From assembly GCA_963769025.1 (NCBI GenBank), contig CAVYKI010000002.1, positions 352,001 to 416,000 on the forward strand: a DNA stretch of 64,000 bases, read 5' to 3'. Source of the stretch: an uncultured Verrucomicrobiae bacterium. Lineage in GTDB: Bacteria; Verrucomicrobiota; Verrucomicrobiia; Chthoniobacterales; Chthoniobacteraceae. The notes beneath the pieces were generated by a model. It was not told where the DNA came from and made no database searches. It saw only the letters and a program-made list of their open reading frames with translations. Numbering within the stretch: position 1 is the first letter of the stretch; each line of letters starts with the position of its first letter. Position numbers and translations under genes: made by a program. Positions 35,817 through 38,717 of the stretch are shown here, one piece after another.

Positions 35817-35893
35817 GCACTCGTAGCTCAACCGGATAGAGCATCGGTCTTCGAAACCGAGGGTTGGGGGTTCGAATCCCTCCGGGTGCACCA
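35817..35893 (+). tRNA. tRNA-Arg (anticodon TCG)
   Basis: Acceptor GCACTCG/CGGGTGC-A-CCA, D-arm GCTC/GAGC, anticodon arm TCGGT-CTTCGAA-ACCGA, T-loop GTTCGAATC. Confidence 0.97.
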
Positions 35894-36216: not shown

Positions 36217-36393
36217 TCACGCGCAAAGCAGTTCTTCCCCGAACAGCGCGATGTCGGCAGCGGCAGACTGAATCGCCAGGTCGAGCGGCAATCCTGCTTC
36301 CAGATAGATGTGGCTGAGAGCCGTCAGTCCATGCCTTGAATTGGCAGGATGATCCGGCGCGTCGGGTTCGAGTGTTTCGGTTTCGTGGTGCAT
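36217..36393 (-). CDS. Small hypothetical protein (58 aa)
   Basis: MHHETETLEPD...LEAGLPLDLAIQSAAADIALFGEELLCA; directly upstream of the ABM gene. Confidence 0.55.
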   Translation of the reverse strand: MHHETETLEPDAPDHPANSRHGLTALSHIYLEAGLPLDLAIQSAAADIALFGEELLCA

Positions 36394-36433
36394 GGGGTTC
36401 GGCTTGGTGGAACCGCAGGCCAACGACGGGGAC

Positions 36434-36466
36434 AAAAAGCCCACCGTCGTTGCCGAGCGGTGGGTT
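36434..36466 (-). terminator. Intrinsic terminator in a leader (attenuator)
   Basis: Minus strand CCCACCG-CTCG-GCAA-CGA-CGGTGGG-C-TTTTT, about 40 nt before the next start codon. Confidence 0.65.
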
Positions 36467-36491
36467 GTTGAAGAAAGACTGTTTGAGGAAA

Positions 36492-36602
36492 TCAGAATCT
36501 CGTCCCACCGCGCAGGGCTTTCGCCCATACGGCAACGCGAACCGGCATCGAGCAAATGCTCTGCGCCTGGCGTTTGGCGGTGGTGGAAATGAGATGATTC
36601 AC
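36492..36602 (-). CDS. Putative 36-aa leader peptide
   Basis: GTG-start ORF MNHLISTTAKRQAQSICSMPVRVAVWAKALRGGTRF ending about 25 nt before the terminator. Confidence 0.4.
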   Translation of the reverse strand: MNHLISTTAKRQAQSICSMPVRVAVWAKALRGGTRF

Positions 36603-36662
36603 GGGTGAGTTTTCCTCGTAGCCGCGATCCGGGTCTCCGTCAATTCCGAGGACGCACCGACG

Positions 36663-36684
36663 GATTGTGAAATATTTCACAATC
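36663..36684. promoter_or_regulatory. Perfect 22-bp palindrome (Rex/CRP-like operator)
   Basis: GATTGTGAAATATTTCACAATC = TTGTGAA-N4-TTCACAA = TGTGA-N6-TCACA. Confidence 0.65.
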
Positions 36685-36828
36685 TCGTCTTGCAATCGGC
36701 GGGAGATCGGCGAATGTGAAAGCGTTCTGGGGGGAACAGCCCGGTCATTGGCCAATCGGTCGGTGATCGGGCACTTTTTTGTACCTGCGAGCCGATGCGC
36801 AGTTCAGCGGTCCCAAAAAGGGTACTCG

Positions 36829-36928
36829 GCGATACATCCGCCTCCCGTCCAGCCGCGATTCAGGAGGTGCTCCATTGGTCGAAGGAATACTCATCATGAG
36901 TCATCTGAGGTCGATGGAGCACTTTTTT
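36829..36928 (+). ncRNA. Candidate structured RNA, copy 1
   Basis: GCGATACATCCGC...CCGCGATTCAG, then stem 36867-36880/36909-36922, apical ACTCA-TCA-TGAGT, T6 tract; repeated at 37539. Confidence 0.55.
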
Positions 36929-37056
36929 GGATTCGCGCCGCCTTGGGAATGCCCTCGGACCTTCACGCCGAGCGGACGGATTTTCCGCGATACGGGTTGT
37001 ATAAAAGAAAAACTCAACACGGTGAACAAATGCGGCGCCGCATCCGTCGATCGGTC

Positions 37057-37248
37057 ATGAAGCAGACATTCCCCATTGAACTGGTGGGCGGCAGCCAGGA
37101 TGGCGCCGTGGTGGACATCGAGGAAGCGCCGGAGGTTTTCCTCATCCGAGCCAGCGAGGGCCTGAGGGAGGTTTACAAGCGCCAAAACTTCGAGCCGCCT
37201 TTCATCTACCTGCAGGTGGGCTACGCGGTGAACGAGACTTCGCAATGA
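37057..37248 (+). CDS. Small hypothetical protein (63 aa)
   Basis: MKQTFPIELVGGSQDGAVV... (GGxxDG motif); ATGA overlap with the next ORF. Confidence 0.6.
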   Translation: MKQTFPIELVGGSQDGAVVDIEEAPEVFLIRASEGLREVYKRQNFEPPFIYLQVGYAVNETSQ

Positions 37249-37487
37249 ACACGCTTCGTCGAGATCCACGGGTCCACTTTCATGGTGAATCCACCCGTTC
37301 ATTCAAAGTCGGGATGTTTCTGGGTGCCGTCATCGTCGCTTTTGTGGCGATGGGTGCCTACGCCCTTGCGGCGGGAGGAAGTGTGGCGATCACGGCCGGA
37401 GTCTCGAAACTGATTCTATTTCTGTGCGGAGTCGTCATCGCGATTTTGCTGACCCTTGCCGTCATCGTCGGGAAGCAACCGCGGTAA
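37245..37487 (+). CDS. Small two-TM membrane protein (DUF1328/YtjA-like)
   Basis: ALAAGGSVAITAGVSKLILFL resembles the DUF1328 helical hairpin LGFGGIAGAAAGIAKILFF. Confidence 0.55.
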   Translation: MNTLRRDPRVHFHGESTRSFKVGMFLGAVIVAFVAMGAYALAAGGSVAITAGVSKLILFLCGVVIAILLTLAVIVGKQPR

Positions 37488-37538
37488 GGCCGCACCGGCG
37501 CCGGACGAGCGCAAAGTCCCTAGCGAACAATCTTCGCA

Positions 37539-37627
37539 GCGATACATCCGCACCGCGATTCAGCAATTGCTCCATTGGCCGAAGAAAACTCGTCACGGGT
37601 AATTCTGGAGTCGATGGAGTACCTTTT
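37539..37627 (+). ncRNA. Candidate structured RNA, copy 2
   Basis: Same blocks as copy 1, stem 37568-37579/37610-37621, apical ACTCG-TCA-CGGGT, CCTTTT tail. Confidence 0.55.
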
Positions 37628-37806
37628 GTCCGGGATGCCGCTGGCCTGCGGTGCTGAAACTCCGTCCATCTCCGGGAAAAGCGAGCGCTGGCAGGAAGGG
37701 GAGAGCCTCCAAAGAGCCGCGCGGCGCGCGAAGGGATTTGAATTTCGATATCCTACATCCGCCGCCGGGGGACTGCGCGATGCATCACTCCCAGGAGGAA
37801 AATCCG

Positions 37807-38085
37807 ATGAATGCTTCGCCTCTCATGATCCCCATCAGCGTCGGCATCTTGTATTTTGGCGGCACCGCAAAAAGCGCGGTGAATGTCGCCAATGTTCTCT
37901 TTTCGATTTCGGCGTTGCTGCTTCTGGCCGCCGCCTTGGCGGACCGGAGCAGAGAAGTGATACCTCGCAGAGGCCACCCCAGCCAGGTTCCCCCGGAGCC
38001 CATCGTTCATCACCACTCGTTCCTTCCCAAGTTCGCCTTCGTCATCGCCCTGCTGACCCTTGGCTCGTGCATTCATGAAAATTAA
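37807..38085 (+). CDS. Small membrane protein (DUF1328-like N-terminus plus extra TM)
   Basis: GILYFGGTAKSAVNVANVLFSISALLLLAAAL; AGGAGG RBS upstream. Confidence 0.55.
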   Translation: MNASPLMIPISVGILYFGGTAKSAVNVANVLFSISALLLLAAALADRSREVIPRRGHPSQVPPEPIVHHHSFLPKFAFVIALLTLGSCIHEN

Positions 38086-38249
38086 TGGCAGTGCGGATGC
38101 GCTCGCCCTCGCCCCCACCTCCAAGGCACCGGATTGCAACTGATCGCCCTCGGCGACCGGCGGTTAAAACCTTCGCCGATACATCCGCCATCGATGTCCA
38201 CCCCGATACATCAGCGGCCCCTGCGGGCAAACAACACCTTGATCCCACT

Positions 38250-38717
38250 ATGACACCACGCTTGCAAAAATCGGACATCCCGCACCTGTTGCTCATCCTC
38301 GGCCTCGCGATTGCACCTGTGATTTTCACCGGGTGTGACCGCACCACCCGAACGTCCGATTCGTTAACAACGCCCGACTCCATGGTCACATTCGGGAAGG
38401 TCGTCACCGCTGCAAACGTGGACTCCAACAACGCCCCCACTGCGCTTGCCGACACATTTTCACCCAGCCAGAAAACCATCTACGTCGTCGCCGAGGCAAA
38501 ACAGATCGCGCCCGGCACACGCATCGCCGCGAGCTGGACGCGCGATGGCACGCCGGTCGAAGTCTCCAAGGAAATCATTGCCAGCAAGGGCTACCACGAC
38601 ACGAACATCGAATTTCACCTGAATTCCGGCCCCGAGGGTTTCACGCCCGGGAGGTACAAGGTGGAGCTCATCGTCAATGGCACCGCTGGTCCCACCGCGC
38701 ACTATACGGTCAAGTAG
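38250..38717 (+). CDS. Hypothetical lipoprotein
   Basis: Hydrophobic signal with FTGC lipobox; beta-rich domain ending PGRYKVELIVNG. Confidence 0.7.
   Translation: MTPRLQKSDIPHLLLILGLAIAPVIFTGCDRTTRTSDSLTTPDSMVTFGKVVTAANVDSNNAPTALADTFSPSQKTIYVVAEAKQIAPGTRIAASWTRDGTPVEVSKEIIASKGYHDTNIEFHLNSGPEGFTPGRYKVELIVNGTAGPTAHYTVK

Follow-up and report, generated by a model that had tools for sequence, protein, structure and literature searches.

Hairpin elements behind promoter-like boxes in a Chthoniobacteraceae genome: a narrowly distributed family of candidate small-RNA genes

Twin hairpin elements and their relatives

We analyzed a stretch of 64,000 nucleotides (nt), referred to as the window, from an uncultured Verrucomicrobiae bacterium of the family Chthoniobacteraceae (assembly GCA_963769025.1, contig CAVYKI010000002.1, forward-strand positions 352,001 to 416,000), in which two similar intergenic elements, c1 and c2, lie among genes for small proteins. 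The locus comprises, in order, a transfer RNA (tRNA) gene, two − strand genes (an ABM-domain gene and a small conserved gene), a small-RNA-like unit designated H0, c1, genes A and B, c2, genes C and D, and a − strand amidase gene (Table 1). The initial annotation had described c1 and c2 as diverged copies of one structured RNA with common blocks and a terminal T tract. Both copies indeed lie where it had placed them, with the end of c2 now set at 37629, and all the blocks that it quoted are common to both. Over 102 aligned columns, with a single 10-nt gap in c2, mean column identity is 87%, and a BLAST-type search with c1 as query returned c2 at an expectation value (E) of 4.2e-11 (80% over 75 nt). 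Conservation sets in abruptly at GCGATAC, and the flanks of the two elements, as the initial annotation had also noted, are unrelated to each other.

Both elements are predicted to fold into a 12–13-base-pair (bp) basal stem that leads through an internal loop to a 3–4-bp helix and a 5-bp apical hairpin, with a U tract behind; the region 5′ of the hairpin is largely unstructured. The + strand folds more stably (−35.5 kcal/mol for c1 and −29.0 for c2) than the − strand (−30.9 and −20.0), with modest + strand z-scores relative to shuffled sequences (−1.9 and −2.2). The proposal that the differences between the copies preserve pairing is borne out: among the 23 consensus pairs we count one compensatory change (A-U to G-C), four one-sided changes that still pair and no broken pair. 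A stable hairpin followed immediately by a U-rich tract, the signature of an intrinsic terminator, is present in both.

No family in Rfam 15 accounts for the elements, which the initial annotation had not recognized as a known riboswitch. At gathering score, a search of the whole window with Rfam 15 returned one tRNA and nothing on c1 or c2; with the threshold relaxed to E 10 over 36600–38400, c2 again matched nothing and c1 matched only Clostridiales-2 (13.8 bits, E 7.7, against a gathering score of 58.6). Titles and abstracts of the papers found on Verrucomicrobia small RNAs (sRNAs) and terminators describe no such element. Nor do the elements resemble miniature inverted-repeat transposable elements or repetitive extragenic palindromes, a possibility that the initial annotation had left to be checked: c1 and c2 are the only full copies in their own assembly (5.34 Mb, 13 contigs, 83% complete), the related genome described below holds five, and no terminal inverted repeats or target duplications are seen by eye at the ends of c1 and c2. 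An integron attC site was rejected, with the RYYYAAC/GTTRRRY cores absent from c1 and c2 (by eye) and an integrase domain in none of 12 large open reading frames (ORFs) within 27.9–46.6 kb. A small conserved peptide was also rejected: c1 and c3, a copy from the related genome, are read in a different frame from c2, and c3 lacks a start codon (by eye). A search for RNA sequencing runs that contain the locus returned none; among DNA contigs, one of 220 nt from soil covers 36665–36871 and differs only at 36698–36723 among the listed sites.

We searched for relatives in 151 genomes of the family, in a set of 61 genomes and in 29 same-genus genomes. A covariance model built from c1 and c2 (R1) gave a single weak match over the 151 genomes, in a same-genus metagenome-assembled genome, G013 (copy c3; 26.2 bits, E 0.011 per genome), which alone is not significant given that number of genomes; R1 also matches copy c5, at 17.5 bits. 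A pattern of shared features and then a second model, R3, built from c3–c5, raised the count in G013 to five copies, c3 to c7, of which c3 and c6 stand 2.5 kb apart on one contig and c4, c5 and c7 elsewhere. In the reverse direction, over a search space of 15.8 kb, R3 recovered c1 at 19.4 bits (E 0.0046) and c2 at 13.4 bits (E 0.079). No homologs of the sequences flanking the G013 copies occur in this genome, and the copies occupy non-syntenic sites. The search of relatives that the initial annotation had suggested, here with models and patterns, yielded these five copies, but in only one further genome; the other 149 family genomes gave no copies in model or pattern searches.

Beyond the family, an exact pattern matched only the G013 record among 185,579 species genomes; metagenome contigs gave no pattern match and then one, inside a 433-residue (aa) ORF, and viral contigs gave none. 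BLAST in the 61 genomes found nothing beyond c1 and c2, other matches being at most 36 nt long at E 0.0015 or worse. These searches depend on the motif and may miss diverged members. Several apparent matches were discarded. The first pattern search, which allowed at most one mismatch, matched 43 of the 151 genomes, with about 17 of the matches listed representing one recurring 34-nt string; six inspected loci lacked a closing arm, and the zero-mismatch match in genome G141 lies inside an ORF. Four weak R1 matches in the genus (E 0.15–0.77) had neither boxes nor stem, and a pattern match in G002 lies inside a 313-aa ORF.

Across the seven copies, positions 2–12 of the basal stem are paired in 72 of 77 cells and mismatched in the remaining five. 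Position 4 is U-A, A-U or G-C, and position 11 is G-U, A-U or G-C with one A·G mismatch; the stem contains two covarying pairs, and the + strand hairpin is under structural constraint. G-U pairs, feasible solely in + strand RNA, occur at five stem positions, in agreement with the strand assignment originally made from c1 and c2. In contrast to this stem, the apical 25–45 nt are wholly different between copies yet foldable, and with variable apical inserts the hairpins measure about 54–62 nt. U-rich tails follow six of the seven hairpins, as U6 in c1 and c7, U7 in c6 and interrupted tracts in c2, c3 and c5. Nothing in c3–c7 corresponds to the internal GAA/GA loop of c1, so the suggested kink-turn-like GA/AG mismatches are not a property of the family.

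The copies stand in varied contexts. Three of them (c2, c3 and c5) come after stop codons, 7–52 nt past the upstream stops; a secreted-protein gene has its ATG 30 nt downstream of c4; c6 occupies the intergenic region between divergent genes, with a lipoprotein gene 100 nt downstream; and c7 stands between two − strand genes with no same-strand gene downstream. By these positions, c6 and c7 need a promoter of their own. Around c3 and c5 (G013 contigs C74 and C480, loci L022 and L124; domain names by eye), we also observed that c3 precedes a gene for a 134-aa coiled-coil-like protein and follows a retropepsin-like ORF, and that c5 is preceded by a paralog of the 134-aa gene and followed by a gene for a LexA/CI-like S24 peptidase repressor, which hints at a mobile or prophage-like neighborhood.

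Promoter-like boxes ahead of the hairpins

The blocks that precede the hairpin also occur without it. The −35-like box ACATCC of c1 is present in c2, in two hairpin-less sites of the window (sC and s3), in two promoter-like regions on contig C6 of this genome and in the G013 copies. As a pair, ACATCC...CGAT(A/T/G)C occurs four times within 1.4 kb of the window (c1, c2, sC and s3), and the hairpin-less pairs on C6 stand ahead of a DUF1328 gene (C6:570743) and a DUF3309 gene (C6:571708), the latter followed about 140 nt on by a gene for an extracytoplasmic function (ECF) sigma factor. The spacer measures 16–17 nt in six of the seven full copies and in all four hairpin-less copies of this genome; the exception is c2, where the 10-nt deletion relative to c1 leaves only 6 nt. 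In all seven copies, a constant 6 nt separates the −10 box from the stem. Apart from the c2 spacer, this is the arrangement of an ECF-type promoter, in which a −35 and a −10 box are conserved and kept about 16–17 nt apart.

The DUF3309-gene pair is kept in place in two further genomes, G012 and G005, with one −35 box change in G005, and in the three species it reads CGATTC, 6 nt, ATG, a geometry that fits a −10 box before a leaderless start. G013 carries more box pairs, ending 8 and 10 nt before ATGs, one of which opens a lipoprotein-like gene; at these two genes and at the DUF3309 gene, the 6–10 nt between box and ATG hold no ribosome-binding motif. Because the blocks are found without a hairpin directly before protein genes, at a fixed spacing of 16–17 nt, we read GCGATACATCCGC and CCGCGATTCAG as DNA signals: geometry and context suggest that they behave as −35 and −10 promoter boxes of an alternative sigma factor, most likely of ECF type. 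No sigma-70-like promoter was found, and none is conserved upstream; a sigma-28 or sigma-54 reading of block 1 was rejected on its unfit spacing (by eye).

ECF promoters likewise consist of two short boxes about 16–17 nt apart with a CG-containing −10 box, and often stand before the sigma factor’s own operon, as the box module here stands before the DUF3309 gene and the ECF sigma gene. One difference is that no anti-sigma gene lies beside the candidate sigma gene, which belongs to locus L132 (C6:570743–572681). That gene is split between two frames, its N-terminal part at 1314–1493 and the remainder at 1501–1947 of L132, either through an assembly error or as a pseudogene, and a convergent gene for an NtrC-type regulator follows it. 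We found 21 sigma genes bearing Sigma70_r2. The other four aligned sigma-homolog loci lack the box arrangement seen at the DUF3309 gene in the three species. Mycobacterial SigK-type promoters read roughly CCATCC, 16 nt, CCGAAT, which resembles ACATCC, 16–17 nt, CGATAC. A term search of PMC7509140 gave no promoter consensus.

In G013 as a whole, the box-pair pattern has 21 forward matches against 3 when reversed, on a high coding background. On the − strand of G013 contig C295 (L159), GCATCC, 17 nt and CGATAC are followed about 30 nt on by a different GC-rich hairpin, GCCGCGGCGGTTG...AACCGCCGCGGTC; the regulon may thus include a further unit of promoter and hairpin here.

Neighboring genes and the adjoining H0 family

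Gene A has promoter-like boxes of its own, of a different ECF-like type (Table 1), and similar boxes, (G/A)TGAA(C/G)A(A/G) followed after about 16–17 nt by GTCGAA, GTCAAA or GTCCAA, stand upstream of its homologs at all seven + strand loci inspected in relatives. Homologs of gene B were found in one of the 29 same-genus genomes at E below 1e-4. The regions upstream of the gene D homologs in G002, G023 and G018 are unrelated, and conservation of the boxes there was rejected. At these loci (L102–L104), the upstream sequence contains what appears to be the truncated 5′ end of an A-family gene (MTDIYPIEF...), and the upstream gene seen there, ending ...GKLSTQLACG, precedes A and B in G025; on account of this remnant and the common upstream gene, we conclude that the A/B/D cluster is rearranged between species. 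Descent of c1 and c2 from the 5′ end of gene A was rejected for want of significant similarity. On the − strand, a small 58-aa gene (MHHETETLEPD...; 36217–36393) is conserved in G001, as is a terminator-like hairpin with a U tract in its upstream leader (36430–36500), which could be a leader, an attenuator or another small RNA.

Table 1 Coordinates of the features discussed, in positions of the window.
Feature	Position	Strand	Remarks
tRNA	35817–35890		
H0 with upstream region	36666–36782 (whole unit)	+	CRP/FNR-like palindrome TGTGAAATATTTCACA at 36666–36681; −35-like TTGCAA, −10-like GAATGT
H0, putative RNA	36718–36782	+	invariant 5′ hairpin GUUCUGGGGGGAAC, then 15-bp terminator hairpin and U6
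c1, whole element	36829–36928	+	
c1 block 1, GCGATACATCCGC	36829–36841	+	contains −35-like ACATCC at 36834–36839
c1 −10-like CGATTC	36856–36861	+	16 nt past ACATCC; putative promoter role
c1 hairpin	36868–36921	+	13-bp basal stem, internal loops, apical 5-bp hairpin; first base 6 nt past −10-like hexamer
c1 tail, CUUUUUU	36922–36928	+	intrinsic-terminator-like
Gene A promoter-like boxes	37023–37051	+	different ECF-type; TGAACAA, 16 nt, GTCGAT; between c1 and gene A
Gene A	37057–37248	+	63 aa, outside Pfam families; 13 of 29 same-genus genomes have a homolog
Gene B	37245–37487	+	80 aa; distantly related to DUF1328, with two membrane helices predicted by eye
c2, whole element	37539–37629	+	
c2 boxes	37539–37561	+	ACATCC 37544–37549, CGATTC 37556–37561
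c2 hairpin	37568–37621	+	starts 81 nt past gene B stop
c2 tail, CCUUUUGU	37622–37629	+	
sC, box pair without hairpin	37755–37783	+	ACATCC, 17 nt, CGATGC; then AGGAGG 37793–37798 and gene C ATG 37807
Gene C	37807–38085	+	92 aa, hydrophobic; weak DUF1328 match, E 0.052
s3, box pair without hairpin	38181–38209	+	ACATCC, 17 nt, CGATAC; ends 40 nt before gene D ATG (38250)
Gene D	38250–38717	+	155 aa, N-terminus like that of a lipoprotein (by eye); 5 of 60 relatives have a homolog

The unit that adjoins c1, H0, is a separate, order-wide and strongly covarying family, putatively of sRNAs. Homologs occur in 25 of 61 relatives, among them 20 of the 29 same-genus genomes, with up to seven matches per genome; compensatory changes affect 11 of 20 pairs among 23 sequences, and the invariant 17-mer is present in five of nine same-order genomes compared with none of the 391 other genomes sampled across the phylum. 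This genome has a second copy at C3:1077961, and Rfam again gave no match. An exact 23-nt copy of the palindrome region at C9:1069261–1069283 could serve the same CRP/FNR-like regulator as a further site.

H0 and c1 are alike in combining a promoter, a short RNA and a terminator into one predicted unit, and in that both end in GCAC-U6 and agree over part of the 3′ arm (local alignment z about 4). They differ in that the H0 model misses c1 (7.6 bits, E 3.6) as well as c2 and c3, that H0 aligns with c2 only at chance level, and that the putative H0 promoter is sigma-70-like with a CRP/FNR-like palindrome. Homology of c1 and c2 to H0 is thus unsupported by the family model, the likeness being confined to the 3′ tail of c1.

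Candidate small-RNA genes and the alternatives

The family to which c1 and c2 belong is real, absent from Rfam 15, of a known kind and narrow in distribution. We favor, at about even confidence, the view that its members are small-RNA genes driven by an alternative, most likely ECF-type, sigma promoter. Each element would be a compact sRNA gene in which a promoter composed of −35 ACATCC, 16–17 nt and −10 CGAT(A/T)C fires straight into a long imperfect hairpin and U tract. Because every copy has its first hairpin base at the same 6 nt past the −10-like hexamer, the transcript is likely to measure about 55–65 nt across the family and about 61 nt for c1, as a U-tailed hairpin RNA with its 5′ end at the stem base. 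The initial annotation’s sibling sRNAs ending in a terminator thereby become the leading reading, but not at the length of about 95 nt that it had given them: with the 5′ blocks behaving as promoter boxes, the RNA is more likely a hairpin of about 60 nt with a U tail.

The same promoter type may also drive genes C and D, the DUF1328 gene and the DUF3309–ECF sigma pair on C6, in which case the RNAs would supply a small stress or envelope regulon with its non-coding arm. The repeats, the fold, the covariation, the box geometry and the contexts are seen in the sequence itself; from them we infer that the elements are transcribed, where they start, that an alternative sigma factor reads them and that their RNAs act in trans. 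With a variable apical region on a conserved basal stem, the apical loops would be the likeliest site of target recognition. The c2 promoter is probably dead, given its 6-nt spacing after the 10-nt deletion, and c2 would now serve mainly as the terminator of the A–B operon or be made by read-through.

Several observations weigh against this account. The family was found in only two of 151 family genomes, both from related soil Verrucomicrobia, and no sigma factor is assigned to its promoter: the candidate gene on C6 appears frameshifted in this assembly, and the nearest G013 sigma homologs lack an upstream box module. Counted genome-wide over all sites, box pairs show no excess at 16–17 nt (14 over the two spacings together, versus 3–9 at each of the others tested), and outside long ORFs the excess is modest, with 5, 4 and 5 matches at spacers of 16, 17 and 18 nt compared with 0–3 at each of 16 other spacers tested. 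The c2 element violates the spacing rule though both of its boxes are letter-perfect, and c4, with no convincing U tract and an ATG only 30 nt downstream, has more the look of a 5′ leader. A 5′ end locked in a stem is unusual for an sRNA that pairs through a seed, and no target was found in a comparison confined to six start regions, the best result for the apical regions being 6 of 300 shuffles, at gene B, in 12 tests. Antisense or toxin–antitoxin pairing with the neighbors was rejected as no better than shuffles.

A cis-acting leader, with the downstream gene under control of the promoter and the hairpin acting as promoter-proximal terminator, attenuator or 5′-terminal stabilizing stem-loop whose read-through some factor would control, seems to us unlikely, if still worth serious attention. 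Same-strand ORFs do lie 30–180 nt downstream of five of the seven copies: gene A after c1, gene C after c2, the 134-aa gene after c3, the secreted-protein gene after c4 (30 nt, behind a weak U tract) and the lipoprotein gene after c6 (100 nt). But gene A’s own conserved promoter-like boxes intervene between c1 and its ATG, which means that c1 is not simply the leader of A; gene C’s box pair sC intervenes in the same way after c2; c7 has no gene to lead; and the U6–U7 tails of c1, c6 and c7 are typical of efficient terminators. An antiterminator is also missing: prefix folding of c1, c2 and c3 reveals no shared alternative pairing with the terminator arms, a second hairpin just 3′ of c3 overlaps no terminator and has no equivalent in c1 or c2, and neither a conserved aptamer nor an exclusive antiterminator of the riboswitch or attenuator kind was found. 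The suggestion that the elements are cis attenuators for the small membrane-protein genes is accordingly unlikely for c1, although a cis role as attenuator or 5′ stabilizer is possible, especially for c4 and c6.

The longer RNA originally envisaged, of about 95 nt, would require the 5′ blocks to be a single-stranded seed or protein-binding sites, the RNA arising from an unrecognized upstream promoter or by processing, and the like motifs in the 5′ untranslated regions (UTRs) of genes C and D being bound by the same factor in a sponge model. We consider it improbable. The sharp onset of conservation at GCGATAC is in its favor, as are an A-rich patch 6–10 nt upstream of block 1 in c1, c2, c3 and s3 (by eye), the greater ease with which an RNA than a promoter would tolerate the 10-nt linker deletion in c2, and the positions of c2, c3 and c5 just past stop codons, from which a 3′-UTR origin would be possible. 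It is opposed by the failure to find a sigma-70-like promoter upstream, by the boxes 6–10 nt before the ATGs of the DUF3309 gene and two G013 genes, which fit a promoter and not a UTR motif, and by the pairing of the 5′ region with the six neighboring start regions, which is no better than that of shuffles. A 17-nt match of c2 to C9:1037811 was set aside as a coding coincidence, since it falls in glycosyltransferase coding sequence (VRMYRS) and does not co-vary in G013.

Least probable among the accounts weighed here, though by no means absurd, is that the elements have no dedicated function, being a duplicated intrinsic terminator or a promoter–terminator fragment spread by local duplication and recombination within a rapidly changing islet of orphan small genes. 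The very narrow distribution, the scarcity of homologs of neighbors such as B and D, and the position of c2 directly after the A–B operon are what one would then expect, and ordinary intrinsic terminators likewise comprise a GC-containing hairpin and U tract, as found after stop codons at c2, c3 and c5. Unrelated terminators, however, have no common stem sequence across loci and species and no promoter-like module at a fixed distance. Here both species, at sites that are not syntenic, keep the stem sequence and its pairing although apical part and flanks have diverged, the box-to-stem distance is fixed to an extent unexpected under neutral decay, and the ends lack the marks of transposition noted above.

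The sRNA-gene reading has a stronger form, quite unlikely on present evidence, in which the elements are diversifying sigma-controlled hairpin RNAs. A fixed promoter and basal-stem scaffold, the latter serving stability, termination or protein binding, would carry an exchangeable apical module that sets target specificity, and one stress signal would fire several differently addressed regulators, two in this genome and five in G013.

The favored reading has its nearest known counterpart in the sigma-E-dependent sRNAs. Those RNAs have a single-stranded 5′ seed and need Hfq, whereas the predicted 5′ end of c1 and c2 is paired in the stem, and there is no relationship between the two in sequence or in Rfam. 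On the favored reading, they are alike in being short RNAs with an ECF-sigma promoter, an intrinsic terminator and, putatively, an envelope regulon: MicA, RybB, MicL and, in Vibrio, MicV are described in PMC4102768 and PMC6694218 as RNAs of about 70–80 nt with these features and an envelope-protein regulon, and sigma-E-dependent sRNAs are by the former an established precedent.

Very few regulatory RNAs are annotated in the Planctomycetes–Verrucomicrobia–Chlamydiae group, for the whole of which Table 1 of a 2022 review lists eight distinct sRNAs (PMC9029176). The narrow distribution of the family limits the weight of the finding for now. A general lesson is that conserved blocks before a conserved hairpin can be promoter boxes, and that covariance models that include them mix DNA and RNA signals. 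If the favored reading is true, it would provide an alternative-sigma promoter motif for Verrucomicrobia together with a small regulon of DUF1328, DUF3309 and lipoprotein genes, to which the hairpin RNAs would add a non-coding arm parallel to the sigma-E sRNAs of enterobacteria; and should the diversifying family prove true, c1 and c2 together with H0 would be the first described sRNA cluster of Verrucomicrobiales.

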